A stretch of DNA of 64,000 nucleotides from sequence record NC_042307.1; one strand, written 5' to 3'. The position numbers were made by a program, and so were the translations under genes. The stretch comes from a phage. Shown here piece after piece: positions 1 through 40,670 of this stretch (positions are counted from its first letter, which is position 1; every line of letters begins with the position of its first letter). The notes under the pieces were generated by a model, which saw nothing but the letters and a program-made list of their open reading frames with translations, did not search any database and was not told the origin of the DNA.

Positions 1-115
1 GGGTGCTATACAAAAGCGGGGGGCACGAGTCCACCCCGTTTTTCACCCCACTTCCGGGAGAATACCCCCCTCTCTTTTTTGATAATCCCCCCCCCACAAT
101 GATAAACGGCGTGAG
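1..115. repeat. G/C homopolymer-rich noncoding leader (G6, C7, C9 tracts)
   Basis: Tracts 'gcggggggcac', 'taccccccctctc', 'aatcccccccccac' read directly; no credible ORF. Confidence 0.4.
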
Positions 116-336
116 GAATGGGGATCTCAAGAGCGCTTTTAACGCCTAATATTTGGGCTTATTCCACTAACATAGGCAGATCTCTGATATTTATAACCGG
201 TTGGGATAAGGGTGTGGGGAAAGTCTTGTTAATAAAGGGTTCCAAAAGGGGTAAGGATTCTGTCCAAATCCAAATCGTGCGTTTAAATAAAGTCTGTGGG
301 AGAACCTTAATAACCAATGTTTGTTCACTTCCATTT

Positions 337-515
337 TTAAAACGAGGATCATTATCATTTGCATTCCACTTTCTAAATTATAATCATTCCCCTTTCTAAA
401 TGAGAATCATTTCACTTCTTGGATAATTATCATTCCCTTTTTTAAATGAGGATCATTATCATTTGCATTTCACTTTTTAAATGAGATTGATTTTTATTAT
501 CATTTGCATTCAGGC
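337..515. repeat. Imperfect direct repeats (iteron-like): 'ATCATTATCATTTGCATT' at 348, 452, 496 and 'TTTAAATGAG(A/G)ATCAT' x3
   Basis: Repeat units read directly; AT-rich, non-coding. Confidence 0.5.
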
Positions 516-517
516 GA

Positions 518-541
518 GCAGGGCAATTGCCCTGCGCTTTT
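518..541 (+). terminator. Perfect palindrome 'GCAGGGCAATTGCCCTGC' followed by T-run (terminator-like or protein-binding palindrome)
   Basis: Inverted repeat with 'gcttttgtg' downstream. Confidence 0.35.
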
Positions 542-627
542 GTGCAAATTCGACATTGCTCCACGGGTTTTACGTTCGGGCATGTATTTTCAAATTCGAC
601 CCATTTTTGGTAGTGTGCCAATTCGAC
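542..627. repeat. Three copies of 'CAAATTCGAC' motif spaced about 35-45 bp
   Basis: Copies at 544-554, 590-600, 617-627. Confidence 0.45.
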
Positions 628-629
628 CC

Positions 630-1109
630 TTAAATTTTATTCCTCCATTTTACTAGGAATTTTAGATTATTTGGACAGTTAGGGTGGGTACCATTACTAG
701 TAGGGACATAAGCCCGGTTATTATTACCCTTTGAGGTAGTTCTAGCAACACGAATATATTTTGGAAGATTGGTTGTTTTACTGTTGGTATTTTTGCGATT
801 TCTAGCATTTTTATAGTCAGGTATTTGTCTTAGATTCTCAGGAGAATTATTAGTGGGATCCTGATCTATATGATCTACCTGCAACTCGGGATCAATACTG
901 CCGTTATGTAGGCAGAAAACAATCCGAGAAACTGCTAGGGTTCCCACCCCAGATACAAAGACCACATAAGACTTCCTACCTTTTCCGTCGTCCCTTAAAG
1001 TGCCTGTATGTTTTCTTTTAGGTAATCTACTCAGTCCACTGGGACTTGATGGGTCAATAAAAAATAAGTCTTTCATTTGTGCATATTCGATAGGTATATA
1101 TCTTGACAT
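630..1109 (-). CDS. HNH homing endonuclease (HNH_3-like)
   Basis: Motif 'VDHIDQDPTNNSPENLR'; ATG at 1109 preceded by AGGAGG; track ORF 630..1163 trimmed to RBS-supported start. Confidence 0.6.
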   Translation of the reverse strand: MSRYIPIEYAQMKDLFFIDPSSPSGLSRLPKRKHTGTLRDDGKGRKSYVVFVSGVGTLAVSRIVFCLHNGSIDPELQVDHIDQDPTNNSPENLRQIPDYKNARNRKNTNSKTTNLPKYIRVARTTSKGNNNRAYVPTSNGTHPNCPNNLKFLVKWRNKI

Positions 1110-1183
1110 AATAAAATTCCTCCTATGAAGTAATATTATAACAAAATTTTCGAAAGTGTGCAAGTGAAATTTTTATATTTGAA

Positions 1184-1212
1184 AATAACCGCCCTCCCTA
1201 TAACCGCCCTAT
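1184..1212. repeat. 29-bp direct repeat copy 1 'AATAACCGCCCTCCCTATAACCGCCCTAT'
   Basis: Identical copy at 1698-1726. Confidence 0.6.
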
Positions 1213-1239
1213 TCGAATCCTGTGGAATTAGCTAGAGTA

Positions 1240-1656
1240 TGTGCAAATCCGACATGTGTTGAGATGTGCGAATCCGATGAAATTTTTATGACTTCGATGA
1301 GAGGGTGTGTGATTGTATGGGTTTGTGGAGAAGATGAGAGAGCGAGAGAAATTTTGGGACTAGAAGGAAGTGGGCGCAGGATTGGTGCGGAGCACCTGAT
1401 TTGCGGGGATTTTGGGGAATAGTTGAGATAATTTGGGGAGATTTGAGATAGGTGCAGAAAAAGTAAAATTTTATTAGCAAAATGGGGCAAAATAGCTTGA
1501 CAAGTGAAAATTCTTGTGGCCCTAAAAACTCAGGCAATCATGGGCCTTCGGCCCGAAATAATGCTGCTATTTTCAAGAGATTATATGTTCCTAAAAACTT
1601 AGGCGTTTGTGCAAATCCGACCATAAATTTCTAGAAACACAATGTGCAAATCCGAC
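1240..1656. repeat. Dispersed 13-mer 'GTGCAAATCCGAC' copies (1240, 1266 variant, 1609, 1644) in ORF-poor region
   Basis: Motif read directly; related 'CAAATTCGAC' copies at 544-627 and one more copy at 3660. Confidence 0.5.
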
Positions 1657-1697
1657 AGTAAAATCCAGAAATGTGTTTTCAAAAAATGTCTCCTAGA

Positions 1698-1726
1698 AAT
1701 AACCGCCCTCCCTATAACCGCCCTAT
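1698..1726. repeat. 29-bp direct repeat copy 2
   Basis: Identical to 1184-1212. Confidence 0.6.
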
Positions 1727-2190
1727 ATTAACCGCCTATTGCTAGAGTTTCTAGGAACATGAAAACCGCCTGAGTTGGCTAGAGAAACAGATTTAAAGTT
1801 TAATGTAAACTCTAGAGTTAGTGCTCAACTATTCCTAGAAACTTAGGAGTCTAGAAGAAAGTGTTGTGCCATCCTAGCAGATGAGCGGCAACAAGTGTAT
1901 CATCTTGAACACAGATATTGCCTTTAAATATTTATCAGTTATTTAAAAGTTAATATACCCCCATTTCATGAGAGTTAGCCCCTCTAGGCGCGTGCGATTT
2001 GATACATCCTCCTAAGTCTCGGTGTGGAAGAACAATTGACGAGAACCTGCAAACAGAACCGTCATCAAGTGTTTTCCTACGAGGAATGATGTAAATCTAC
2101 GGCCTAGAGGTAAAAACAAGTTGATGTTTTTAATCTATGAGATTATTATAACATGCATTTGGATATCTGTCAAGAATTTTTCGTTAACGT

Positions 2191-3401: not shown

Positions 3402-4015
3402 TAACTACCTCTCTTATCTTCGTTAAGAGCAGCTCCCAGTGTTTCCATAATTGCATCTTCTAGACTTCCATGCTTACTAGGATTGCTTAAGTGAGTAACG
3501 TAGATGGGATTCCTAGAAACTCCAGAGTCCACAGGCGCTACGCTTTTCATGTCAGATTCAAAAGCTTCTTGAGTATGTTTCAACTGTGCAGATGGTCCAT
3601 AATCTTCACCAACTCGATATGAGGAATTATTTTCTATGACGCCACCACACGGAACATTGTGCAAATCCGACGTTGTTTTAGGACTGTTCCACATTGTAAT
3701 TGGCCCTGACTGCCACGGATCCCGAATAGTTACTGGAGTACTAGGGCGGTTCACCTCAGTCTTCACGAGTTTATAACCAGCATCTATTAATGCATTAATA
3801 AGGTTATCAGCTGGAATGCGAGCCTTGCCAAAAATCTTACGAGCGTTGTTGAGCTTACCTTCAAAATCTTTACATGCTTTAATATTAGTGTGTGCAAAGG
3901 TTAGCTTCATAGATTTGAATTGTACAGTGGCAGTTAAATCTTTGAAGCTATAATCCCACGTATTCAGTTCATGATCTGGTACTACTTGAATAGATTGTTG
4001 TGCATATAAAGTCAT
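3401..4015 (-). CDS. hypothetical protein (204 aa)
   Basis: ORF; start overlaps stop of upstream gene. Confidence 0.5.
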   Translation of the reverse strand: MTLYAQQSIQVVPDHELNTWDYSFKDLTATVQFKSMKLTFAHTNIKACKDFEGKLNNARKIFGKARIPADNLINALIDAGYKLVKTEVNRPSTPVTIRDPWQSGPITMWNSPKTTSDLHNVPCGGVIENNSSYRVGEDYGPSAQLKHTQEAFESDMKSVAPVDSGVSRNPIYVTHLSNPSKHGSLEDAIMETLGAALNEDKRGS

Positions 4016-8810: not shown

Positions 8811-9332
8811 TTAGACATTTAACATCCAGCTAGTTTTATCATGAGAAGTGTACTTACCATTCATGATGTCTTCCAGGCGTACTGGTGATTTTGCATACTC
8901 TACACAAACGTTAATATAACGGGGATCTCCCATTAACTCAAAGTGAGTATGCCCATGTAAGTTCTTCTTGCCCCTTAACTCTTCTGGGTGTACTGGAGCA
9001 TGGGAAAGCCAAAAGTTTTTATATTTAACTAGTGATTGTACGTTATCTACAACTCCCACTAAGTCTTTGAAAGATAACCCTTCTCGTTCTAAGTCGTGGT
9101 TCCCCAAAACTAAGGTAGTTCTAGCATTACTAAAGAGTTTTTCGAATTTCTCCAAACCATTTCTAGATACAAATGCATCCCCTAAAATATAAAATACTGT
9201 ACGCTTATCTTTCATGGATGTAATAGTATCCATAATAAATTCATCATGCTCTTCCATAGTAGAAAAGATTGGTCTGAATTTAGTAATATTTGCATGTCCT
9301 AAATGGAGATCACTCCAAAAGCAAACTTTCAT
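8811..9332 (-). CDS. calcineurin-like metallophosphoesterase
   Basis: 'DLHLGH', 'GDAF..RN', 'GNHD' motifs. Confidence 0.6.
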   Translation of the reverse strand: MKVCFWSDLHLGHANITKFRPIFSTMEEHDEFIMDTITSMKDKRTVFYILGDAFVSRNGLEKFEKLFSNARTTLVLGNHDLEREGLSFKDLVGVVDNVQSLVKYKNFWLSHAPVHPEELRGKKNLHGHTHFELMGDPRYINVCVEYAKSPVRLEDIMNGKYTSHDKTSWMLNV

Positions 9333-10196
9333 TTAAAGAATCCTCTGTACACCACAGCTATTATTTTTGTCAGTGGTAAATGTTGTGATTTTGCCAGTTT
9401 CATCATTAACCTGCGCAACCGTCAACTGCCCGTTGAAAACACCGCCAGTATCAAGATAAACACGGTTTTTATAAAGAAGTGGGTAAGGTACTCCAGTATG
9501 TCCGTGAAACACGAAATCTACTCCTTTAACTTCTGGCACTTCTACCATATATTTTTCTTTAAACCCAGAATAACGCTGGAAATACGGGTGTTCCTCACCA
9601 TTTTTAGACAAGTGGAAACCTATTTCTTGGATTACATCTCGATCCCATAGATATGGTTCAACAAGGTATCCCGGGTGATCACGTGGATCTTCCTTAGCTG
9701 CTTCTACTTGTGCAATAAGGTTATCCCATACTGGGGTTTCTACCTCATTACCACATTCTTTATACGTGAATGGTACACCACCATGAACAACACCATACTT
9801 CTTACCACGATGCAGCACAGTCAGGAATACTGGAAGTTTTTCAGCCATGTCTTCGGCAATATTTTTAATGGTATCTGCATCTAGTTCATTCATAGCCCAC
9901 ATACCACCGTTATACATCCAGTTAGCCCAATCTCCTACAATCATAAACTGGTCATGATTTCCACGAACGCTACAGAAACGTGGATTATATAAGAATTTAG
10001 CTAGAACTTGTAGATTCTGCGTGCCTCGGTCAATTAAATCCCCTACACATACAACGCAATCTTTCTTGCCGTTATAGCCAGCTAATTGTAGTGCATCTTC
10101 TAGTAAATCGTTGCATCCATGAATATCACCAACAAAGAATAAGTTAACATCATCAGGTACTACTAGTGTTTTATGTACATTAAATTCTTTTTTCAT
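9333..10196 (-). CDS. Ser/Thr protein phosphatase (PPP family)
   Basis: 'GDIHG', 'GDLIDRG', 'GNHD' motifs; ATG at 10196. Confidence 0.7.
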   Translation of the reverse strand: MKKEFNVHKTLVVPDDVNLFFVGDIHGCNDLLEDALQLAGYNGKKDCVVCVGDLIDRGTQNLQVLAKFLYNPRFCSVRGNHDQFMIVGDWANWMYNGGMWAMNELDADTIKNIAEDMAEKLPVFLTVLHRGKKYGVVHGGVPFTYKECGNEVETPVWDNLIAQVEAAKEDPRDHPGYLVEPYLWDRDVIQEIGFHLSKNGEEHPYFQRYSGFKEKYMVEVPEVKGVDFVFHGHTGVPYPLLYKNRVYLDTGGVFNGQLTVAQVNDETGKITTFTTDKNNSCGVQRIL

Positions 10197-10198
10197 AA

Positions 10199-10444
10199 TT
10201 ATTCCCAAATAACATTTAAAATAGTTGTACCATAATTATTTGATAGTTTTAGAGTATAACCCTCTTTATAAATGGATTTTATAGCTTCATAGCTAATTTC
10301 GTCACGGTTAAACTGCACATAAGAACCCCCAGCCTCTACAGAAGCTATAATCCGTCTTTTAACATACCTATATGGTTTCTTTCTGCTCTTAAGGAGTGCA
10401 GCCCTATTAATTCTAGATAAACGTTTTGCTTGCTCCGCTAACAT
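10199..10444 (-). CDS. hypothetical protein (81 aa)
   Basis: ORF. Confidence 0.4.
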   Translation of the reverse strand: MLAEQAKRLSRINRAALLKSRKKPYRYVKRRIIASVEAGGSYVQFNRDEISYEAIKSIYKEGYTLKLSNNYGTTILNVIWE

Positions 10445-10500
10445 TTAATCCTCCTATCAATCTATATAATTATTATACCAAAATTTTTAGCAAAAAGCAA

Positions 10501-10534
10501 GTAAAATAAAAGCCTGATCCGCTAAGATCAGGCT
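10501..10534 (-). terminator. Rho-independent terminator
   Basis: Stem AGCCTGATC/GATCAGGCT, T-run in minus sense. Confidence 0.55.
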
Positions 10535-10541
10535 TGGTTTA

Positions 10542-10832
10542 TTAATCTTCTGGATTATCATCCAGGAAGTTTTTAATAGCTTCGTGCATAGTTTCCTTAC
10601 GAAGCTGACGTCCAATCAAAATATGATTAGCTTCTATTCGACCATTAGGTAAGCGATCTGCCAGAACTACTACAGGTACTTGACGTACACCAAATTTCTG
10701 CATTAATTCTGTATTATCAGTCTCTTTATGGATTTCCAAATTATAGTCATTGACTACTTTATCAAATACTGGCTCAAACATTTTGCAAGGATTGCAAGTA
10801 GAACCTTTCAATAGATATACTAATTTACTCAT
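10542..10832 (-). CDS. thioredoxin/glutaredoxin-like protein
   Basis: Redox 'CNPC' motif near N-terminus, about 96 aa. Confidence 0.5.
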   Translation of the reverse strand: MSKLVYLLKGSTCNPCKMFEPVFDKVVNDYNLEIHKETDNTELMQKFGVRQVPVVVLADRLPNGRIEANHILIGRQLRKETMHEAIKNFLDDNPED

Positions 10833-14184: not shown

Positions 14185-14937
14185 TTACCCCACTAGTGGT
14201 TCTAGCTCTGAGTCACAGAAGTTATACACTTCTAGTGTGAGGTTATAGATACCATCGGGTGTATTAGCTAATTCGTGAGTGATATATTTTGCAGGAATAC
14301 CACTTTCAGATGGATGATCTGATTTAATAGTGAACTTCTGCTCAGCGGGCACTACATTTACTAGTAAAGAATCCATATCTAAATGGTTCGTTTCTCTGAG
14401 TAACTCTCCTTCATTGGGGAATCTCACATCTGTTATTACGGCGACATCTGGGTCGTCTTTAGCGATGGATTGCTCCAGAATTATGAGCCAAATGCGTTCA
14501 TGTACCAGCTGCCTTCCTAGCTCTGTTCCTACGAGCTGTAACATTTTTCTTGGAGAAATAAATAAACTATAAAGTCCGTCTTCTTTATTCTCTGAGATAA
14601 GTTGTTGAGGATTAAGATATTTTTCCTCAAAAATCGGCCAAAGGTACGAGAAGTCTTCAAACTTATCGATACCGTATTTAAACCATACGTCTCTAGCTCG
14701 CTCCAACTGAGATTGTGTGACTGTAAACCATTGGTCAATCTCTTTCCCTCTGCGCTCTCCTAGAAACTCTGGAGTTACACCGAGGATTACGGATGCAAGT
14801 TCATAAACGGGCTTAGCAAAACTGTAACGACGGGATAAACACGTTGGATACGTGTCATTACACCAATCGATAATTAATTTTGCAACGGTATCTTTTCCTG
14901 CACCTGCCCCGCCATGTAAACCTACTAGTACGCTCAT
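14185..14937 (-). CDS. dnk: deoxynucleoside-5'-monophosphate kinase (T5 Dnk-like, 250 aa)
   Basis: P-loop 'GGAGAGKDT'; size matches T5 enzyme. Confidence 0.6.
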   Translation of the reverse strand: MSVLVGLHGGAGAGKDTVAKLIIDWCNDTYPTCLSRRYSFAKPVYELASVILGVTPEFLGERRGKEIDQWFTVTQSQLERARDVWFKYGIDKFEDFSYLWPIFEEKYLNPQQLISENKEDGLYSLFISPRKMLQLVGTELGRQLVHERIWLIILEQSIAKDDPDVAVITDVRFPNEGELLRETNHLDMDSLLVNVVPAEQKFTIKSDHPSESGIPAKYITHELANTPDGIYNLTLEVYNFCDSELEPLVG

Positions 14938-21698: not shown

Positions 21699-21883
21699 TA
21701 GCTCTCCTGTTTGGTAGTTAGTAGTGGATTTGAACCACTGTAGTCGCTCCGTATGAAGGAGGTGCATAACCACTCTGCCAACTAACTATTATGTTTTACT
21801 AGACTAAGTAAGTATTCTTTGTACTCTTTAGACCAATTAGCTTTTTTAAACTTTCCTGGACGCATAGTCTTAATTCCTAAATT

Positions 21884-21960
21884 TGGTACTCCGGGAGGGA
21901 TTTAAACCCCCGATCTCTCGGTTATCAGCCGAGTGCTTTAGATCGCTAAGCTACCGAAGT
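21884..21960 (-). tRNA. tRNA-Ile (anticodon GAU)
   Basis: Hand-folded cloverleaf; CCA encoded. Confidence 0.6.
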
Positions 21961-21975
21961 ATTAAAATATTTACA

Positions 21976-22266
21976 TCACACACTTTCTAAGTAAGAAGTA
22001 TAATGGAATTTAGTTTCTCCAGTCTTATCTACTTCTACCTCAGTTCGTGGTACTTGACGAACTACACCATGAATCATCTTATAGCGAATGCCTTTAGCTG
22101 GTTCATGATCTTTTGGAAATACTTGTTTAACCGTTACTACTTTATATCCTTCACGCGGTGTTAACACTACTACTTGATCACCCTCTTTGATTTTCCAGGA
22201 GGGTGGAAATTCATAGGTATATCTTTGACCACCAGTTTGGAATACTACAGAAAGATAACGTTTCAT
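21976..22266 (-). CDS. hypothetical protein (96 aa)
   Basis: ORF with upstream promoter-like sequence. Confidence 0.4.
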   Translation of the reverse strand: MKRYLSVVFQTGGQRYTYEFPPSWKIKEGDQVVVLTPREGYKVVTVKQVFPKDHEPAKGIRYKMIHGVVRQVPRTEVEVDKTGETKFHYTSYLESV

Positions 22267-22340
22267 TTGGTTTCCCTCTCATTAATTTATATAATTATTA
22301 TAACAAGAAATAAGAGAGAATGCAAATGAATTTTTAAATT

Positions 22341-22415
22341 TGGTGCTCCCACCAGGAATCGAACCCGGTTCAGATGCTTACAAGGCAACTGCATCGCCAG
22401 CAATGCTTTAGGAGC
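22341..22415 (-). tRNA. tRNA-Thr (anticodon UGU), one mismatch in anticodon stem
   Basis: Hand-folded; CCA encoded. Confidence 0.5.
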
Positions 22416-22435
22416 GATGATCCCGTTATTTCAAC

Positions 22436-22600
22436 GGGATTTCTTTTTCAATAACAGGAGACTTATCAGTCATAACTGTCATAGCCAACTGCTGAAGAAA
22501 CTCGAAAGTTAGCTTTAAACGTTCTTCACCTAATTCAATCTCAACGTATTTCTTTTGCTTGTCAACCTTTAATTTTAGGTTATCAGCCATCTTCTGATTC
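22436..22600 (-). CDS. small hypothetical protein (54 aa, below track cutoff)
   Basis: ATG 22600 to TAA 22436; 'MADNLKLKVDKQKKYVEIEL...'. Confidence 0.3.
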
Positions 22601-22804
22601 TCGTTGCTCGGCTACTGCTAGCCAGTCTGGTAAAAGAAACTTAGTACGAAACTCTTCATAAGATTCTTCTGGATAAAAGCTAAAACCTCCTTTCTCATCA
22701 TTCAAGATAACAGAGCCGTCAGTTTGTTCATACGCTCGATATGTTTCTCCAATAATGATAACTCGCTTATCAGTACTTTTATTACGAAACTCAAAAACGT
22801 GCAT
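22583..22804 (-). CDS. hypothetical protein (73 aa)
   Basis: ORF. Confidence 0.35.
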   Translation of the reverse strand: MHVFEFRNKSTDKRVIIIGETYRAYEQTDGSVILNDEKGGFSFYPEESYEEFRTKFLLPDWLAVAEQRESEDG

Positions 22805-22818
22805 TGTGTTTCCTTATT

Positions 22819-22893
22819 TGGTGCGGGATACGAGAGTCGAACTCGTGTTTACTGGTTGGAAGCCAGTTATTCTAGCCACTGAACTAATCACGC
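22819..22893 (-). tRNA. tRNA-Gly (anticodon UCC)
   Basis: Hand-folded; CCA encoded. Confidence 0.6.
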
Positions 22894-22900
22894 ATTAATT

Positions 22901-22984
22901 TGGCTGGAGAAGGAGGATTCGAACCTACGTACCTTCCGGTTATGAGCCGGGTGCTCATACCATATGGGCTTGAGAACCAGAATT
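22901..22984 (-). tRNA. tRNA-like element, anticodon loop 'CUCAUAA' (CAU), acceptor stem noncanonical
   Basis: T-arm and CCA present; 5' acceptor does not pair. Confidence 0.3.
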
Positions 22985-23073
22985 TGGCGGAAGAAGTGGG
23001 AATCGAACCCACAAGGCTATATTTCAAACCGACAGATTAGCAATCTGCTGCAAAACCGTTCTGCTATTTTTCC
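22985..23073 (-). tRNA. tRNA-Ser (anticodon GCU), class II with long variable arm
   Basis: Hand-folded; CCA encoded. Confidence 0.55.
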
Positions 23074-23093
23074 GGATTTATAAATATATTATA

Positions 23094-23612
23094 TTAGAAA
23101 TTTAGCTTCATGGCAAGAAAATTTTTCAAGTTTTCGGTAGACATCTCATCCACATCTATAGGAGAAACAAACCCATTTAATTGTTTAGCAAACTTTTCGC
23201 CAGCAGGATCATTATCCCCAACAGCTACCAATTTAAAAGGTAGTAATTTCAATTGCTTTAATAGCGGTTTTCCTGGAGAAGAACCCAACATTGCTAGAGC
23301 AGGATACCCAGCATTATGTAATGCTACAGCCTTAAATACAGATTCAGCAATTAATACTACTTTTTCATCCCCATTGAGAGTTTCTAGTCCCCATACACAC
23401 TGTGTAGTAGAATAAGTAAAATATCTAGCTTCAAAGGGGCACTTACCATGACCTTTTGGAGCAGAAGGATTATAAGTCTGATAGCCTCTCAACATTCCAG
23501 AGAAGTCATACAATGGGACTGTTAGCCATCCTTCTGGGCTTAACCAGCAGTGATATTTATCTGTATCAAACCCTCTAGATAAGAGATGTTCTGTTAGTTC
23601 ATCAATAGTCAT
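23094..23612 (-). CDS. Toprim-like domain protein
   Basis: 'VVLIAESVFKAVA...VAVGDNDPAGEKFA'; ATG 23612 with GAGAGG RBS. Confidence 0.4.
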   Translation of the reverse strand: MTIDELTEHLLSRGFDTDKYHCWLSPEGWLTVPLYDFSGMLRGYQTYNPSAPKGHGKCPFEARYFTYSTTQCVWGLETLNGDEKVVLIAESVFKAVALHNAGYPALAMLGSSPGKPLLKQLKLLPFKLVAVGDNDPAGEKFAKQLNGFVSPIDVDEMSTENLKNFLAMKLNF

Positions 23613-23831
23613 ACTAGATTCCTCTCTCAAATTTATAAATATATTATGCAGAGAATTTAGCATTCAAGCAATTGAATTTTTTAACTTTTTAGAGGAAAAT
23701 CACAGGATGCTTAAGGGTAGCAGGTAAGTGGGTAGACCCCAAAATTGTTATCCCCACTTGATTTTCAATGTGATATAGTGTAAAGTATTTGTCATAGCTG
23801 AGTGACCAAAGAGACACACTTATCCTCTACC

Positions 23832-23873
23832 TTAAAACAGAAAAGCCCTGCGCTCTCCAGGGAACACAGGGCT
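23832..23873 (-). terminator. Rho-independent terminator
   Basis: Stem AGCCCTG/CAGGGCT, 'tttctgtttt' in minus sense. Confidence 0.55.
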
Positions 23874-23897
23874 TACTTCGAATATTACGTGTGGGAA

Positions 23898-24845
23898 TTA
23901 CTTGTTACGCATATCCATAATCATCTGGCCATCGTAACCAGTGCCAACTACTGTTTGAGGTACACCGCCTTGATATTTCTGAGCACGAATCATTTCAACT
24001 TCTAGTTGTTTCCAGCGAATCATCTCAGGAGTAATAGTACGTTGCAGAGCGGCGTTAGCTTCGGCTTCCTTCTTAGCTGCGTACAGTTTAGCATCTGCAT
24101 CACGTTCGTTTGCAATAGCTTGGTTGTTACGAGCTTCACGATCTGCTTCTGCTTGTTTAACCTTCTGCTGTGCTTCTTGTTCAACACGAGCCAACTCAGC
24201 TTTCGCAGCATTAACTTGTTCCTCACGAACTTTGGTATTCTGTACCTGTTCCATGATTACAGGCGGCAAAGTAATATCCTGAAGGAACACTTGCTTAACT
24301 GTGTAACCATAAGGGCGTGCATACTCTTCAACTTCCTGTTGAATTGCGGTTTGTAATTGAGCCTGGATTTTAGCATCAAACAAATCTTGTGCTTTAGGAA
24401 CAGACTTACCGAACTCACGAATAGTGGACAGTAATTTTTCAGTTACATATTTGTCTAATGCTTGATCCTGGGTACCTGCGTTAATACGGTTAATCGGTGC
24501 CTTAGAACCATCAAACTGCAACATAACAGTCAGGTCAACAGTGGATTTAAACTTATCCTGACTAGGAACCTGAAGTTTATCTAATTTTACAGCAATGTCT
24601 TTTGTACTAAAAGTATCGAAAGATGCAAATGGGTTTACAAGATGAAAACCAGGTAATACAGGATTAGGGTCTACTTTACCCAGAAATGTTTGGGTTTTAA
24701 CCGTACCATCAGAAACAATAGTATATGAATTAAAAGCTAGGATTAAACCTGCTAAACCAACTACAGCACCAATACCCCAACGTTTAATAGTGCGGATTAC
24801 TTTTTGCTCAGAAGTCAGTTCTTTCATATTTTTAGTATTAAACAT
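23898..24845 (-). CDS. SPFH/band-7 (prohibitin/HflC-like) membrane protein
   Basis: N-terminal TM, long Ala/Glu/Gln-rich coiled coil; AAGGA RBS. Confidence 0.55.
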   Translation of the reverse strand: MFNTKNMKELTSEQKVIRTIKRWGIGAVVGLAGLILAFNSYTIVSDGTVKTQTFLGKVDPNPVLPGFHLVNPFASFDTFSTKDIAVKLDKLQVPSQDKFKSTVDLTVMLQFDGSKAPINRINAGTQDQALDKYVTEKLLSTIREFGKSVPKAQDLFDAKIQAQLQTAIQQEVEEYARPYGYTVKQVFLQDITLPPVIMEQVQNTKVREEQVNAAKAELARVEQEAQQKVKQAEADREARNNQAIANERDADAKLYAAKKEAEANAALQRTITPEMIRWKQLEVEMIRAQKYQGGVPQTVVGTGYDGQMIMDMRNK

Positions 24846-24879
24846 ATATTTCCTTTGTTTTAGTTACAGTTAATAAAAT

Positions 24880-24954
24880 TGGCCGAGGTGACAGGATTCG
24901 AACCTGCATAAAGGAATTTAGAAGACTCCTGCCTCTCCCTTAGACTACACCCCG
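24880..24954 (-). tRNA. tRNA-Arg (anticodon UCU)
   Basis: Hand-folded; CCA encoded. Confidence 0.55.
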
Positions 24955-36082: not shown

Positions 36083-38410
36083 TTATAAGGTACAGCCACC
36101 TGAAGAACATCCTGTAGTTTCTCCAGCTCCTCCACCATTCGCAGTGTTAAAGTTAGCATAATACCAGGTTTTTATACCATACTTAACCGCAGTCATAAAG
36201 TCACGAACTACTACTGGGCCAGGGATGATTTCATTCTCGAATTTAGAGTAATCATAATACATCTGGAAACTTGATGACTGACTCAAGAATTTTTGGTAAA
36301 CGGCGTTCCATTTGATCCACTCAGTGCGATCAATATCATAAGCTAGTTTATAGCTCATTAACGTTTCCCAGTCGGTTGCACCTGGAGCAATTGCAATTAC
36401 TTTATTTACTGCACTACCTTTGATAGATACAATCTTACGAGGTGGTTCGATAGAGTTAGTAACACCTAACAGAACAGAAGAACTTTCTCCCGGCATCTGA
36501 GCAGTCAGAACAGAGTTACGCATACCATATTTCAGAATATCTGCACGCAGAGACTCCCAATCCATTTCTAGACCTACGGATACCAGTTCATCAACAGTTT
36601 TCTTGTACGTGTCGATTACCAGAGTTCCTTTAGATGGTTTAGTACGATCGAACCATTCACATGCACCTTGCTCTTTGGCTAGACGTACAGAGGCTTTATG
36701 CAGGAAGTAGGACAATTTTTCAGCTTCACGATGAATCCAGTTACGAGCCTCAATACCTTCATAAGCCAGACCTTCTGCTGCCATTGCACCTGCTGCGTTC
36801 ATCAGACCAATACCAACGTTACGACGTTTCTTAGCCGTATATTCCATAGTTGGGAACGGGTAATCCTGAATTTCAATGATGGTATCAACAAATTTCAGAA
36901 GAATATAGCAAGTCTTTTCCCACTCAGCCAGAGATTCCATGCGTCCTAATACAACACCACCTAAGTTACACAGAGATACTTCCCCAATATCCTCCGGCTT
37001 CATTTGATCGAGTTGTTCTTTTGTTTTATACAGTTCCGTGATATGATGGAACGGGCGTGTAGGCTGAGTAATTTCAACACAAAGGTTGGTCATACGAATC
37101 GGGTCAAGGAAGTTACCATGACGGTTAGATTCACCAATGTGATGAGCATACATACGCCCTGTTTCCATACGGATACGTAACCAAGTATCTAGGATTTCTT
37201 TTGCAGAGATTCTAGGAGCTGCTGGAATTGTTTTTCCTTCGTGGTCGGTCTTTGTAAGAGATGCCACACGTTTCTCCGCTGCCACGTAGATTTCTTCAAA
37301 CTTAGCCTCATCTTCACCATAAAACGCTTCATGAACTTCTGGTGCGTAGAAGTAGGACATTAGCGTAATATCTTCGTTTTTCAGGTAACGTTTTAACAGA
37401 AGGTTGTTAAAGCTCAGAGAATAATCCATCTTATCGATTTTATTCTCGTCTGTAGCACGTTGCTGCTTAACCTGCATCAACTGAATGATTTCAGGATCGA
37501 AGTATGGATAAGACACAGTAGCAGAACCGCCACGGGTTTGCTGAGTGTTAGCTTTTACTGAACGGTCAATGTGTCGATAATATGGCAGTTTTCCGGAATG
37601 CGGGAATGCCCCATTTCGCACCGGATCAGCAATTGATCGGCTTTCAAGATGATACCCGATTCCCGCTCTGGCTGCGACCATTTTGAAGACGATGTGCTCG
37701 GCTGTGTCGATTGAATCCAACGTGTCAGTGGAATCCACGAGGCAGCAACTAGCAAATCCACGGTCACTAGAACGCAAACCAACCAGTGGCGGCGTAGGAA
37801 CGTTGATTTTGTGGAGCGACATTGCATTGTAGAGATCGATTGCATCTAGAATTGTCCAGTTGGGTTGAGATAACATCGCCATTGCCATGCCCATATAGGC
37901 AAATTGCGGGGTTTCGTAAATTTCACCAGTGGCTATATTACGACGGGAATATTTATCAAAGAACTGTTTCAGTCCACCACTAGTAAAAAGACGGTCACGA
38001 TCGTGGTCTATAACCTGATTCAGAGCTTCAAATTGCTCATCGGTAATCCATGCACTCATGTCTTCCCATGCACCTACACTAACCATATGATCGTGGAAGA
38101 AGCGTAGAGAAGGTGGTTCGAAGGAATCATAAAGGCGTTTACGCATCTGCGCAAGACGTAATTCCTTTGCTGGCACGTCGTATGCTGGATTATCTTTAAT
38201 AAGACTTTCGGCAGCTTTAATTAACGCATCCATCAGAGTATCGGAATCTACAACCCCTTTAGGCAGAGTTTTTTGAGCAGCCATAGTAATGGCAGACCAA
38301 CTTACATCAACTGTTTTGCAACCATACTCTGCCCAACCATTGAGTTTTTCAGGAGCAAAGTCTTCTACAGTACCGTCACGTTTAATTACTTTTTCAATGC
38401 GATGGCTCAT
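36083..38410 (-). CDS. nrdA: ribonucleotide reductase large subunit NrdA
   Basis: ATP-cone N-terminus, 'CNLG', C-terminal Cys pair; ATG 38410 with AAGGA RBS. Confidence 0.8.
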   Translation of the reverse strand: MSHRIEKVIKRDGTVEDFAPEKLNGWAEYGCKTVDVSWSAITMAAQKTLPKGVVDSDTLMDALIKAAESLIKDNPAYDVPAKELRLAQMRKRLYDSFEPPSLRFFHDHMVSVGAWEDMSAWITDEQFEALNQVIDHDRDRLFTSGGLKQFFDKYSRRNIATGEIYETPQFAYMGMAMAMLSQPNWTILDAIDLYNAMSLHKINVPTPPLVGLRSSDRGFASCCLVDSTDTLDSIDTAEHIVFKMVAARAGIGYHLESRSIADPVRNGAFPHSGKLPYYRHIDRSVKANTQQTRGGSATVSYPYFDPEIIQLMQVKQQRATDENKIDKMDYSLSFNNLLLKRYLKNEDITLMSYFYAPEVHEAFYGEDEAKFEEIYVAAEKRVASLTKTDHEGKTIPAAPRISAKEILDTWLRIRMETGRMYAHHIGESNRHGNFLDPIRMTNLCVEITQPTRPFHHITELYKTKEQLDQMKPEDIGEVSLCNLGGVVLGRMESLAEWEKTCYILLKFVDTIIEIQDYPFPTMEYTAKKRRNVGIGLMNAAGAMAAEGLAYEGIEARNWIHREAEKLSYFLHKASVRLAKEQGACEWFDRTKPSKGTLVIDTYKKTVDELVSVGLEMDWESLRADILKYGMRNSVLTAQMPGESSSVLLGVTNSIEPPRKIVSIKGSAVNKVIAIAPGATDWETLMSYKLAYDIDRTEWIKWNAVYQKFLSQSSSFQMYYDYSKFENEIIPGPVVVRDFMTAVKYGIKTWYYANFNTANGGGAGETTGCSSGGCTL

Positions 38411-38554
38411 TTGGTTTTCCTTTTTATAGTTATCAGGATTTAGGAAATAGTTTACTTTATTCTCAGTCATTTGGCAAATAAAATTTTCTGATAGAAAAGG
38501 CCCGAGTATTTTCATACCCAGGCCTCCTGTGTTGTCAGTCTAGTTTTTGGCCAC

Positions 38555-38752
38555 TTAAGTTCTCAGCAGAATATCTATTGAGGTACTTAGTTCATTATAA
38601 TTGAAGGGCCGATTTGGATTTGAGGTTACAATTGTCCACGCTAGGGTAGTCTTAGGACTTTCTTCCCCTTCCTTACGTGTAATCATATTAGCAGCACTCA
38701 GTGAAGTACGATGTATTTTAGTTTGTCGGTGTAAATGTACAACGTCTCCCAT
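38555..38752 (-). CDS. small hypothetical protein (65 aa)
   Basis: ATG 38752 immediately after phoH stop. Confidence 0.3.
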   Translation of the reverse strand: MGDVVHLHRQTKIHRTSLSAANMITRKEGEESPKTTLAWTIVTSNPNRPFNYNELSTSIDILLRT

Positions 38753-38753
38753 A

Positions 38754-39515
38754 TTACACCTTCCCCATGTCTTTAAAAATATCGTAGAATGCTTTAGACT
38801 CAGCAGAACGAACGTTATCAATCAATTCGATCATTGAGAATGGAGCATTTTCATATTTCTCATAAACTTCCATAAGAAGTGCTAGACCTGAGTCACCTTT
38901 AATGTCTTTCTGAGCTATATCTCCGCAGATAATTAAACGGCAGTCTTGTCCTACACGAGTTAGGAGACAAACCATTGCCTCAACGGAAATATTCTGAGCT
39001 TCATCGACAATTACATAGGAGTTGTTGAAAGTTCTGCCACGAGCATGTTCTATAGCCAAAAATTTAATTTTCTGACGTTCGACATATCCCTTATAGGCAT
39101 GATCACCGATGGCCCATTTCATACCATCAGCTATTGGCTCCAACCAAGGCTCTAGCTTTTCTGCTAGATCACCAGGAAGCATACCAAGAGACTTACCTAG
39201 AGGTTCATTAGGACGTACGAGGATCACTTGCTCAATATCTGAGTGAATGTCTACGAGTTCCTGAGCTGCAAGAACAGACGGGATAAAGGTTTTACCTGTA
39301 CCTGGCTCACCGATACCCACAGTCACTGTGTTGTTCTTGATCATATTAATATATGATTTTTGCTCTCGGTTTTTACCTACTAGGGATTTAGCAACTGGGT
39401 TAGCGTAATCATTAGAAAAATCAGCCTGAATTACGTTATTCTCATATTTGTTGCCACGCTTTCTTGAACCATTGCGGTTCTCTCTTTTTTGACGTGCTTT
39501 TCCCATAAATAACAC
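38754..39515 (-). CDS. phoH: PhoH-like ATPase
   Basis: Walker A 'GEPGTGKTF'. Confidence 0.7.
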   Translation of the reverse strand: MLFMGKARQKRENRNGSRKRGNKYENNVIQADFSNDYANPVAKSLVGKNREQKSYINMIKNNTVTVGIGEPGTGKTFIPSVLAAQELVDIHSDIEQVILVRPNEPLGKSLGMLPGDLAEKLEPWLEPIADGMKWAIGDHAYKGYVERQKIKFLAIEHARGRTFNNSYVIVDEAQNISVEAMVCLLTRVGQDCRLIICGDIAQKDIKGDSGLALLMEVYEKYENAPFSMIELIDNVRSAESKAFYDIFKDMGKV

Positions 39516-39748
39516 TCCTATAGTGTACTTCGCTTCTAACAGAGGATCAACAAAGAGATCTTGTTTATCAACTTACAAATATATTATAACAAGGTTTACA
39601 GCAAAAAGCAAGTATAATTTTAAATAAACCTATGATATTGCTTTTAAATAAAAAATTTACTTGCTTATAAAGGTAGAAATATGATACTAGATAATCATTT
39701 ATTTATATGCGAAATATTACAGTATTAGATGGCGAAAGAAAATTTTAA

Positions 39749-39777
39749 TTGACATAGTGGATAATGTTTAGTATAAT
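39749..39777 (+). promoter_or_regulatory. Sigma70-like promoter (-35 TTGACA, 17 bp, -10 TATAAT)
   Basis: Read directly upstream of first plus-strand gene. Confidence 0.55.
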
Positions 39778-39800
39778 AGGTGTAAAAATTCTGTGGAGAA

Positions 39801-40670
39801 GTGGAATGCCCGAAAAAATTAACTCAAGAAGAAGTAGATAAATGCCTAGCCGAGCGTGGTTTTACTATGGTGGATAAGCCATATCAAAATTCTAGGTATA
39901 GGCATACGTATCAGTGTGAATACGGTCACCAATGGACAGCTAAATTTGACGCTATTAGGAATGGAAAGACCAATTGTCCTACTTGCTCTATTAGTAGCCG
40001 TAAACTAGATATTGATAAAATTAATACTATATTACAGGACAGAGGTATTACATTGTTGAACGGCTATAAAAATAGTGCCGATATAAATACTAAATTTAGG
40101 TGTGTTTGTGGTCATGAGTGGGCTACTACACTTAATAGTATAATTAATAGAGGTAGTGGCTGCCCATCTTGTGCTGCTAATAAACAGAAACTTAGTGTTA
40201 ATACTATAAATGATCGTCTTGCTGCCAGAAATATCAGAATAGTGGGTGAGTATAGTAATGCGAATACTAAGACCGCCTTTCTTTGTGGTGCAGGGCATAG
40301 GTGGGAAGCTACTCCAGGGTCTGTATTAAGGGGGAACGGTTGTCCTTACTGTAGTTATAGAGATTTAGAAAGTACTAGGATATATGTTATGTATAGCCCC
40401 TCACATGGGGTTAAAATAGGTAGGTCTAACAATCCAGAGCGTAGACTTCTACATATTAGATCTAGTAGCCACCTTATTGATTTGGAAATAATTAAAGTAT
40501 TTGAAATTGGGGAATATAGTAGTGCAGTTCGAATAGAAAAATTAGCCCATAACTACTTTAAAGAGCAGAATTGCCAGTACAAAGATTTTGACGGCGCTAC
40601 GGAATTCTTCAATATTGAACCAAAAGTAGCTATAAAGTTTATCGAGGAAATAATCAATGACAGAGAATGA
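39801..40670 (+). CDS. T5orf172/GIY-YIG-like endonuclease with four zinc-ribbon repeats (GTG start)
   Basis: Repeated 'C.C.H.W....GCP.C'; 'RIYVMYSPSHGVKIGRS'. Confidence 0.55.
   Translation: MECPKKLTQEEVDKCLAERGFTMVDKPYQNSRYRHTYQCEYGHQWTAKFDAIRNGKTNCPTCSISSRKLDIDKINTILQDRGITLLNGYKNSADINTKFRCVCGHEWATTLNSIINRGSGCPSCAANKQKLSVNTINDRLAARNIRIVGEYSNANTKTAFLCGAGHRWEATPGSVLRGNGCPYCSYRDLESTRIYVMYSPSHGVKIGRSNNPERRLLHIRSSSHLIDLEIIKVFEIGEYSSAVRIEKLAHNYFKEQNCQYKDFDGATEFFNIEPKVAIKFIEEIINDRE

Follow-up and report, generated by a model that had tools for sequence, protein, structure and literature searches.

The left end of a Tequintavirus genome window as a probable orthologue of the T5 injection-stop region, carrying an HNH homing-endonuclease cassette

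Introduction

Transfer of phage T5 DNA into the host cell comes to a halt when ~8% of the genome has entered and resumes only when the proteins A1 and A2 have been made. How this transfer stops and restarts has been a standing question since the 1960s. The terminal repeats of T5 are ~10 kb long, compared with 160 bp in T7 and T3. In the concatemer junctions of T7 and T3, in pac regions and in lambda cosB, arrays of short repeats and of sites for protein binding surround the place where terminase forms the DNA ends. The T5 injection stop signal (iss) region has been treated in several studies (Heusterspreute 1987; Wang 2005; Davison 2015/2020; as cited in 10.1101/866236), and the same architecture has been described for 25 T5-like phages (Davison, bioRxiv 10.1101/866236). 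Papers of 2023 and 2026 still call the injection stop signal undefined, and neither they nor Davison (10.1101/866236) report a mutational test of a stopping sub-element in T5.

Here we describe the left end of a 64,000-nt stretch of phage DNA (NC_042307.1, hereafter the window). An initial annotation, made from the sequence, had compared its first 2.1 kb to an origin, a partition site or a protein-binding array, and had pointed to the position of the T5 injection-stop signal.

Results

By sequence, the window belongs to Tequintavirus, the T5-like phages. Over 20 kb, Tequintavirus genomes are 92-94% identical to it. When we looked for a near-identical genome against which to compare the left end, the best match was 94-95% identical. 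The 1-2100 region matches 468 phage records, nearly all of T5-like phages of Salmonella and Escherichia, and is therefore, as a whole, not an assembly artefact. Alignment to T5 (NC_005859) matched 215-638 to T5 9437-9848 with 82% identity and 1212-1909 to T5 9908-10608 with 91% identity. The two matches are colinear and flank an HNH insert on both sides. They lie inside and just beyond the annotated T5 iss (9140-10149 in NC_005859) and also span the end of the T5 left terminal repeat (10219). T5 annotations in the aligned stretch include the iss, nick 1, palindromes C-J, direct repeats DRA-DRD and the left-repeat end. The suggestion that the region occupies the T5 injection-stop position was thus right.

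Gene order with the pre-early and early genes is kept relative to T5 and Shivani. As in T5, Shivani and SIA3lw, the region lies at the long terminal repeat's distal end, where the rightward pre-early operon and the leftward early genes converge; A1 and A2 are encoded upstream of the window. We found all of the DRC/DRE repeats, palindrome J with the nick motif CCCTGCGC, and the DRD copies arrayed on one strand. We conclude that 1-2100 very probably comprises the non-coding DNA with which the long terminal repeat ends distally and the initial ~600 bp of the unique early region. It is orthologous to T5 'Repeat Region 3' with its annotated iss, and is a composite of cis-acting elements, not a gene (Table 1). 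This kind of region is already known, and the window adds no new element type to it.

Table 1. Coordinates of features at the left end of the window (distal DRD copy included)
Feature	Position	Strand	Basis or remark
Window-private stretch of substitutions and 1-nt insertions, denser towards base 1	1-725		Comparison with relatives
Terminator-like hairpin and T-run, homologue of T5 palindrome C	17-45	+	Pairwise alignment to AY587007 9194-9213
IRD'-spacer-IRC' homologue with two DnaA-type box pairs split by GTC (~213-235, ~280-304)	180-327		Degenerate in window
AT-rich direct repeats, 23-nt period: T5 DRC copies 1-4 and two 60-66-nt DRE units	329-511	+	Repeat search, T5 alignment
Perfect 18-bp palindrome (T5 palindrome J) and T-run, terminator-like hairpin	518-541	+	Overlaps nick motif
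DRD copies 1-3	541-554, 587-600, 614-627	+	T5 alignment, motif search
HNH homing-endonuclease gene, 159 aa (predicted)	630-1109	-	PF13392, E = 9.8e-13
Optional HNH cassette, in place of ~64 bp including DRD copy 4	~639-1211		Presence/absence among relatives
Left copy of 30-bp repeat (2 x TAACCGCC), right edge of HNH cassette	1183-1212	+	Repeat search
DRD copies 5 and 6	1240-1253, 1265-1278	+	T5 alignment, motif search
T5 direct repeat A copies 2 and 3 (TTTGGGGA..TTGAGATA)	1409-1447	+	Repeat search, T5 alignment
Most conserved block of region, terminal-repeat end inside	1461-1580		24 relatives
CCTAAAAACTYAGG x3, first starting at repeat end	1521-1534, 1590-1603, 1834-1847	+	Repeat search
GC hairpin GGGCCTTCGGCCC, 20 nt outside repeat end	1542-1554		Occurs once in T5 genome
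DRD copies 7 and 8, outside terminal repeat	1608-1621, 1643-1656	+	T5 alignment, motif search
Right copy of 30-bp repeat and third TAACCGCC	1697-1736	+	95-98% identity among relatives
Conserved non-coding block	1837-1909		24 relatives
Leftward sigma-70 promoter TTGACA-17-TATAAT, extended -10	2145-2173	-	12/12 consensus positions
Distal exact DRD copy (T5 'direct repeat D copy 10'), within T5.019 homologue	3658-3671	+	Motif search

Two sites on the + strand have the form of a rho-independent terminator, 17-45 followed by TTTTT and 518-535 followed by GCTTTTGTG. The former, degraded in the window, has a fold energy of -16.5 kcal/mol (z = -2.9); its T5 counterpart, palindrome C, is the putative rho-independent terminator that closes the rightward pre-early operon. 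In the IRD'-spacer-IRC' homologue, the box pairs in 24/24 relatives approximate TGTGGATAA-GTC-TGTTAATAA and TGTTGATAA-GTC-TGTGGATAA, and the window has TGTGGGGAAAGTCTTGTTAATAA and GTTTAAATAAAGTCTGTGGGAGAA at the same places. BLAST gave no match between the T5 IRD'-IRC' element and 180-327, and no TTWTNCACA consensus box is present in 1-2100; the whole window holds 7 DnaA consensus boxes against 8.0 expected. Since the loss coincides with an error gradient described below and is probably due to sequence decay, the missing box is evidence neither way. No inverted copy corresponding to the partner element, IRC-spacer-IRD, was found in the 64 kb; the window begins downstream of its expected site, 2-4 kb upstream in the repeat. 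The short direct repeats noted earlier at 348-510 are confirmed as T5 DRC/DRE: a 23-nt-period array at 339-476, 60-nt units at 329 and 433, and the 16-mer ATTATCATTTGCATTC at 351, 455 and 496. DRC/DRE copy number differs among relatives. The T5 FST shear point at ~9618 (Davison, 10.1101/866236) maps to ~486 in the window.

The perfect 18-bp palindrome reported at 518-535 (GCAGGGCAATTGCCCTGC) is indeed there, with an estimated chance expectation of ~0.008 in 2.1 kb, and the T-run follows directly. At 530-537, CCCTGCGC is homologous to T5 major nick site 1, and T5 has this motif at its nick sites 1-3. Identity among 24 relatives is 99% at 521-560. The repeat CAAATTCGAC, listed in the initial annotation as a triplicate, has two exact copies (545 and 591) and a third with 1 mismatch (618). 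These do not form a family of their own but are copies 1-3 of DRD, whose sequence in relatives is CAAATCCGAC. In the window they read ..AATTCGAC in place of the family's ..AATCCGAC, and relatives have CCGAC. The "CAAATTCGAC" and "GTGCAAATCCGAC" families are therefore one family, DRD. Exact copies of TGTGCAAATCCGAC were found at 1240, 1608 and 1643 (given before as 1240, 1609 and 1644), with a fourth at 3658. Allowing up to 3 mismatches gives 14 matches in 64 kb, compared with 3.8 +/- 2.0 in shuffles, and nine of them, all on the + strand, fall at 261-1656. In 24 relatives the DRD copies occupy one strand and fixed positions relative to the GC hairpin: -487, -441, -415, -384, -303, -278, +66, +101, (+238) and ~+1900. 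DRD clusters in IMG/VR occur in T5-like contigs only. Since every DRD copy is situated to the right of the T5 shear point, DRD may be unrelated to the stop. TTCGAATCC and DRD resemble tRNA T-arms, but the complementary stem is absent, and a tRNA scan found none in the region.

The terminal-repeat end maps to 1522/1523 (..TTGTGGCCC/TAAAAACTCAGG..): the T5 left-repeat end (AY587007 10139 = NC_005859 10219), the SIA3lw repeat boundary and the end in Shivani (11123) each fall there to within 1 nt. Identity at 1461-1620 is 93-100% in the 24 relatives, and conservation is highest at palindrome J/nick site/DRD1 and around the repeat end. The GC hairpin exists as previously noted, although at 1542-1554 and not at 1530-1550, and bases 1541-1560 are identical in 24/24 relatives. 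Neither strand of this hairpin fits the definition of an intrinsic terminator: the leftward T-run is 13 nt away and z = -0.6. The perfect direct repeat given as 29 bp at 1184/1698 is also present, with a corrected length of 30 bp, at 1183-1212 and 1697-1726. On the unique side, the hexamers of the leftward promoter are kept and its spacer is variable in 24 relatives; it faces the repeat end from the end of the early genes. We found no convincing ORF downstream of it and no conserved small ORFs in 1200-2200. Two candidates were rejected: the ATG at 1881 is AAG in three relatives, and AGGAGG at 2007-2012 adjoins its ATG. Rfam in E-value mode over 1-2400 gave two chance-level matches only (E = 0.5 and 1.0), and CTAG palindromes of the TTCTAGAA type are frequent across the whole genome and were set aside as a feature of the region.

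The left end is ORF-poor, as the initial annotation had it, but not ORF-free, because it contains the predicted 159-aa HNH gene on the minus strand. Its domain, a promoter at 1135-1162 (minus strand), and presence or absence at a fixed site with conserved flanks identify 639-1211 as an HNH homing-endonuclease cassette. A partial DRD is also part of the cassette, as is the left copy of the 30-bp repeat, which arrived with it; the right copy is ancestral. The cassette is present in 2/24 IMG/VR loci and in Shivani, FGS017 and S.Inf 5-2. Salmonella phages Shivani, vB_Si_CECAV_FGS017 (FGS017) and NR01 and Shigella phage SHSML-45 carry it at the identical site together with the extra 30-bp repeat, and FGS017 is ~99% identical to the window over 740-1225. 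These four differ from the window in having an intact 179-aa HNH protein, and canonical boxes and CAAATCCGAC in the left part. As a natural HNH insertion has replaced DRD copy 4, this copy and the DRD 3-DRD 5 spacing are dispensable.

The left ~725 nt of the window differ from the relatives in a graded manner. Relative to FGS017, differences per column rise leftwards from 0.00-0.04 at 701-1225 through 0.15-0.16 at 501-700 and 0.23-0.33 at 101-500 to 0.43 at 1-100. No such gradient is seen between FGS017 and S.Inf 5-2, the control pair. One could argue that this stretch is real, a naturally diverged or decaying iss copy with genuine homopolymers and lost DnaA boxes. Phage genomes are mosaic and abrupt identity shifts are possible, and the damaged ORF might be a selfish HNH gene on its way to becoming a pseudogene. 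We consider this improbable. The divergence is a smooth gradient down to base 1, and it hits positions invariant in 24 relatives: 121-360 has 48 substitutions at ~141 otherwise invariant columns and 31 private inserted bases, compared with no private change in the ~1000 nt at 1212-2240. Of 69 substitutions, 48 introduce the same base as a neighbour has (29.9 +/- 3.7 expected). Bases 1-400 have 47 extra bases relative to FGS017, mostly single nucleotides, whereas the relatives align with each other nearly gap-free in the same stretch. In the HNH gene, whose 3' part is corrupted with a premature stop (159 aa compared with 179 aa in relatives), the first 384 nt have 4 nt differences from FGS017 and the last 156 nt have 25; the last 52 codons have 18 nonsynonymous and 6 synonymous changes plus the stop codon. 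The variant is found in no database sequence: an odd 24-mer of the left end is absent from IMG/VR, and no record either agrees with the odd left-end sequence or speaks against it.

The G and C homopolymers noted at 1-115 (G6 at 18, C6 at 65 and C9 at 87) are present in the sequence, but they fall in the worst part of this gradient and are probably not biological. G/C runs of at least 6 number three in bases 1-95, two in the remaining 63.7 kb and none in the homologous stretch of 24 relatives. Since the private errors increase towards base 1 and copy neighbouring bases, the homopolymers most likely reflect base-calling decay at a read or contig end. The same decay most likely turned CAAATCCGAC into CAAATTCGAC, shortened the HNH ORF and blurred the DnaA boxes. 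The homopolymers, the variant 10-mer, the missing DnaA boxes and the short HNH ORF should be given no biological reading before 1-725 is resequenced.

Discussion

All functional reading of the region follows from its homology to T5. By this homology, the injection stop most likely works as follows. The terminator would end the rightward pre-early operon. The paired boxes of IRD'-spacer-IRC' and the AT-rich DRC/DRE repeats bracket the point at which first-step transfer halts in T5. After entry of the left end, factors would attach to the repeated boxes of the IRD'/IRC'-DRE part, keeping the DNA at the envelope, and transfer would restart upon synthesis of the pre-early proteins A1 and A2. The published candidate binder is the host DnaA, whose binding at the T5 boxes is a proposal only (Davison, 10.1101/866236). 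The earlier description as a 'protein-binding array' thus fits the published view, with binders that are putative (Davison, 10.1101/866236). T5 puts its whole DNA into FhuA proteoliposomes in vitro (Davison, 10.1101/866236), which means that the stop requires something cellular. The same-strand DRD 14-mers straddle the repeat end, itself placed within a near-invariant block, and the unique side holds repeats and the promoter that reads leftward. The copy of this sequence at the virion DNA's right end, together with the invariant junction block, most likely has a further role in terminus formation. Constraint on the sub-elements is far higher at palindrome J/nick site/DRD1 and the repeat-end block than in the AT-rich repeats, and this ranking in 24 relatives indicates which elements to mutate first.

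The conserved core could instead be mainly a packaging or terminus signal. Terminase would recognize the junction block 1461-1580, perhaps with the flanking DRD, CCTAAAAACTYAGG and TAACCGCC motifs, and cut concatemers at the repeat's right end; the stop would be a secondary function or a separate one of the left part. This is possible, though we do not favor it, and it is compatible with the main explanation. Exact long terminal repeats require a cut here, and three annotated repeat ends coincide in the best-conserved block. DRD copies flank the cut on both sides at fixed distances, but they are also found within genes far from the ends (T5 12073 and 79019-79048). TAACCGCC occurs at only 4 unique sites in T5, three of which (35, 10317 and 10332) are within 200 nt of a repeat boundary, on its right-hand side; the 64-kb window has five copies, every one of them in this region, and the motif beside the left terminus is kept in 13 contigs. 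However, the left and right boundaries do not align locally any better than shuffles do (score 16 compared with a mean of 17.8), the bases at the cut site vary (CCC, CTC, ATC), and the terminal GTGGA similarity of the two T5 ends is lost in Shivani. We found no experimental data on T5 terminase sites. A further version is a dual-purpose iss region, in which the invariant repeat-end block with DRD, CCTAAAAACTYAGG and TAACCGCC, the last recurring 35 nt inside the T5 left terminus, would be the signal for terminus formation or for packaging initiation. The left copy's injection stop would in that case come as a by-product, or be another use, of this protein-DNA architecture, and the conserved leftward promoter (2173-2145) would feed transcription into the junction, as at the T7 concatemer junction. 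We regard this version as rather unlikely.

A purely transcriptional boundary, with terminators, a promoter and repeats that play no role in DNA transfer, has little probability. It would account for the two terminator-like hairpins on the + strand (17-45 and 518-541), which have annotated counterparts in Shivani and T5, for the conserved leftward promoter (2173-2145) and for the convergence of gene orientation at the region. Yet terminators and promoter cover less than 100 nt of ~1.5 kb of conserved non-coding DNA, and the number of terminator-like sites, 2, is close to the 1.7 in shuffles. Such a boundary also leaves unexplained the nine or ten fixed same-strand 14-mers, the paired boxes and a block 100% identical in 24 phages with different flanking genes. 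A replication origin or plasmid-like iteron/partition locus, as had been proposed initially, is very improbable. The layout superficially resembles oriC and iteron origins, with DnaA-type 9-mer pairs in relatives, adjoining AT-rich 23-nt repeats and direct 14-mers, and a resemblance to oriC has been noted before (Davison, 10.1101/866236). However, the cumulative GC-skew minimum is near 40 kb and the left end is a local maximum at a convergent gene junction. The DRD spacing is irregular (46, 26, 31, 81, 25, 344, 35). Among the four adjacent ORFs in the first 4 kb, Pfam recognized only HNH, with no initiator and no ParA/ParB, and the genome is that of a lytic phage with linear virion DNA. T5 origins were placed near the genome centre by electron microscopy (as cited by Davison, 10.1101/866236). 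The oriC likeness is thus a resemblance only, not membership.

The layout of the region can be compared with other phage termini. It is similar to the T7/T3 junctions, pac regions and lambda cosB in its short repeats around the repeat end, and its promoter faces the junction; no sequence similarity between them and this region is known. The closest counterpart is T5 Repeat Region 3, which is orthologous both by sequence (82-91%) and by position. The window differs from T5 in having the HNH cassette in place of DRD copy 4 and a second 30-bp repeat, in lacking DRD copy 9, and in its palindrome J, a perfect 18-mer compared with a 17-mer in T5. Its left 725 nt are degraded, which makes the DnaA-type boxes unreadable. 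The order of elements is common to both: palindrome C, IRD'-spacer-IRC', DRC/DRE, palindrome J with nick site 1, the DRD array, DRA, the repeat end and DRD copies 7 and 8.

Identity of the region and its mapping onto T5

Bases 1-2200 of the window match 468 phage records, nearly all of them T5-like phages of Salmonella and Escherichia. Over its first 20 kb the window shares 92-94% identity with Tequintavirus genomes, among them IrisVonRoten, vB_Sen_I1 and T5, and no record nearer than ~95% identity was found in the database comparison. Judged by these matches, the region at 1-2100 is genuine and widely conserved among T5-like phages; taken as a whole it is no assembly artefact, a case the initial annotation had raised. 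BLAST and pairwise alignment with T5 (NC_005859 and AY587007) matched window 215-638 (82% identity) and 1212-1909 (91%) in conserved order, placing the region at the injection-stop position, as had been proposed. In NC_005859, the aligned stretch contains the annotated 'injection stop signal (iss)' (9140-10149), the 'major DNA single-chain interruption' (9748/9749) and the point where the left terminal repeat ends (10219). The individual repeats annotated in AY587007 were projected to the window through the pairwise alignment (Table). The annotated repeat ends of Shivani and vB_SalS-SIA3lw, two related phages, map within 1 nt of the T5 end, and the first leftward early gene ends at 2191. The coinciding repeat ends indicate that ~1.5 kb of the region is the terminal repeat's final part and a further ~0.6 kb is unique DNA before the leftward early genes. 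The element is the already described T5-type iss, or Repeat Region 3, and is therefore known.

Table. Features of the left end placed on the window by homology to T5
Feature	Window position	Source
Palindrome C / terminator homologue	17-45	T5 annotation via alignment
IRD'-spacer-IRC' homologue (inverted repeats)	about 180-327	T5 annotation via alignment
DRC copies 1-4 and two DRE units (direct repeats)	329-511	T5 annotation via alignment
Estimated first-step-transfer shear point (T5 9618; Davison, 10.1101/866236)	about 486	projected via alignment
Palindrome J	518-535	T5 annotation via alignment
Nick-1 motif CCCTGCGC	530-537	T5 annotation via alignment
DRD copies 1-3 (direct repeats)	start 541, 587, 614	T5 annotation via alignment
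DRD copies 5-6	start 1240, 1265	T5 annotation via alignment
DRA copies 2-3 (direct repeats)	1409-1447	T5 annotation via alignment
Left terminal repeat end	1522/1523	T5 annotation via alignment
DRD copies 7-8	start 1608, 1643	T5 annotation via alignment

Repeats and their conservation

The 18-bp perfect palindrome and the direct repeats reported earlier are present in the window. So are the GC hairpin, at 1542-1554 rather than about 1530-1550, and the perfect direct repeat, which is 30 bp (1183-1212 and 1697-1726) rather than 29 bp; 'CAAATTCGAC', listed as a separate family, is DRD copies 1-3. The observation is largely real, with part of the apparent oddity most likely due to sequence error. 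The 14-mer TGTGCAAATCCGAC has 14 matches in the window at up to three mismatches, compared with 3.8 ± 2.0 in shuffles; nine lie within 261-1656, all on the plus strand, and four copies are exact. Relative to the hairpin, DRD positions are fixed in all loci of the relatives at -487, -441, -415, -384, -303, -278, +66 and +101, often with a further copy at +238 and a distal one near +1900. The distal copy lies inside the T5.019 homologue (window 3658-3671, on the array's strand) and recurs in nearly all of 24 IMG/VR relatives, which were fetched through this neighbouring gene; the T5 annotation already names it 'copy 10' (T5 12073). Two further copies are annotated in T5 exo2 (79019-79048), also on the strand of the array; exact or near-exact DRD 14-mers occur within these protein-coding genes. 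Clusters of the exact 14-mer in IMG/VR were confined to T5-like contigs of 95-122 kb, and single matches elsewhere were at the chance-expected level.

Identity of the 24 relatives to the window peaks at 521-560 (palindrome J, nick motif and DRD1; 91-99%) and again at 1461-1620 (93-100%), with bases 1541-1560 the same in 24/24. High values also occur at 1641-1720 and 1841-1900, low ones at 1741-1840 and from about 1921 to 2120.

The region had been described as ORF-poor; it is not ORF-free, since a 159-aa HNH endonuclease gene (PF13392) occupies 630-1109 on the minus strand, with a predicted promoter at 1162-1135. DNA homologous to window ~639-1211 was found in only two of the 24 relatives, SHSML-45 and NR01, and the cassette is also present in Shivani, FGS017 and S.Inf 5-2. 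In cassette-free phages the same site is filled by ~64 bp including DRD copy 4. Because its left copy is carried by the cassette, the perfect 30-bp repeat is the product of a mobile insertion, outside the ancestral array. Elsewhere, relatives L013, L015 and L020 carry an insertion of ~770 bp just after the first early gene, between positions homologous to window 2153 and 2193, and GIY-YIG or other HNH nucleases are annotated near this site in GenBank relatives. Mobile nuclease genes appear to have a hot spot of insertion at this junction.

Sequence quality at the left end

The IRD'-spacer-IRC' segment is near-identical among the 24 relatives, whereas in the window it carries many substitutions and inserted single bases. 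Counting private changes, that is, window differences at columns where every other sequence agrees, gave none at 1212-2240, fewer at 441-640 than at 121-360, and in the latter 48 substitutions among about 141 such columns, with 31 bases inserted as well. Differences per column relative to FGS017 were 0.00-0.04 (701-1225), 0.15-0.16 (501-700), 0.23-0.33 (101-500) and 0.43 (1-100), and extra bases, going leftwards, numbered 0, 3, 4, 13, 19 and 11; the control pair FGS017 and S.Inf 5-2 had no gradient. In 48/69 substitutions the new base matches one of its neighbours (29.9 ± 3.7 expected). Three G/C runs of at least 6 fall in bases 1-95, against two in the other 63.7 kb of the window and none in the homologous stretch of relatives. 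The HNH gene differs from FGS017 at 4 positions in its first 384 nt and at 25 in its last 156 nt, the latter stretch having a premature stop besides 18 nonsynonymous and 6 synonymous codons. Shivani and FGS017 are similar to each other there. The smooth gradient to base 1, neighbour-copying, homopolymer growth and disregard of coding constraint make it very probable that the left end reflects decay of base calling where a read or contig ends. Consensus DnaA boxes are absent from the region in the window as given. Neither this absence nor the G/C homopolymers, the ATTCGAC spelling of DRD 1-3 and the short HNH ORF should be taken as biology.

Functional interpretation

In T5, DNA entry begins with the left ~8% and then pauses in this repeat region until A1 and A2, two pre-early proteins, have been synthesized; no mutational test in the cited literature pins down the responsible sequence (literature including Davison, 10.1101/866236). 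It was proposed that membrane-bound DnaA binds paired boxes (Davison, 10.1101/866236). By homology, window 180-511 would be the counterpart of the stop region, the terminator-like hairpins at 17-45 and 518-541 would end rightward pre-early transcription, and the near-invariant block around the repeat end must hold whatever sets the right end of the DNA. Several overlapping cis-elements, and not a single device, describe the region best.

Other functions were considered. An origin at the left end, suggested initially, is not supported: the GC-skew minimum lies near 40 kb, genes converge at the junction and the four neighbouring ORFs scanned against Pfam include no initiator gene. A partition site is likewise unsupported. 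Cumulative GC skew of the window has its minimum and sign change at ~38000-42000, where a replication origin should be sought instead. A packaging signal, compatible with a stop function, draws on TAACCGCC and CCTAAAAACTYAGG. All five window copies of TAACCGCC lie within 1186-1736; three of its four unique T5 sites (35, 10317, 10332) lie <200 nt to the right of a repeat boundary, and the copy by the left terminus is kept in 13 contigs. CCTAAAAACTYAGG starts exactly at the repeat end and has two further copies. These positions suggest motifs shared near the termini, but the left and right boundaries align no better than shuffled sequence and the cut-site bases vary between phages, and we consider a packaging signal rather unlikely.

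At the left repeat boundary, 13 T5-like contigs (L111/L161-L169) and T5 1-45 have a variable first 15-20 nt followed by invariant GAAAATACTTAGTCTGCTAACCGCCACCCCC, and a nick-site-like GCGC-N27/28-ATTAC lies upstream of the cut. The four annotated T5 major nick sites (AY587007 9661, 22250, 39660, 78651) share CCC(T)GCGC and, ~30 nt downstream, (A)TTACG; both are kept in the nick-1 homologue (window 530-575). The 14-mer CCTAGAAACTCTGG, a relative of the motif that begins at the terminal-repeat end, occurs at window 14759-14772 and is a candidate counterpart of a T5 site, where the 14-mer lies 3 nt after the CCCTGCGC belonging to annotated major nick site 2.

A perfect predicted sigma-70 promoter (TTGACA-17-TATAAT with TG; 2145-2173, minus strand) sits just beyond the last leftward early gene and points across ~600 non-coding nt to the repeat end, with no credible ORF downstream. 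Its hexamers are conserved in the 24 relatives while the spacer sequence is free, and it is absent from the T5 annotation.

Further along the window, ARAGORN found only six tRNA genes (Met, Ile, Thr, Gly, Ser and Arg) at 21712-24954, whereas more than 20 are annotated in the homologous stretch of T5 (27.9-41.3 kb). The window seems to lack about 8 kb between tRNA-Gly and tRNA-Ser(AGC), an apparent loss that resembles the st-type deletions of T5.
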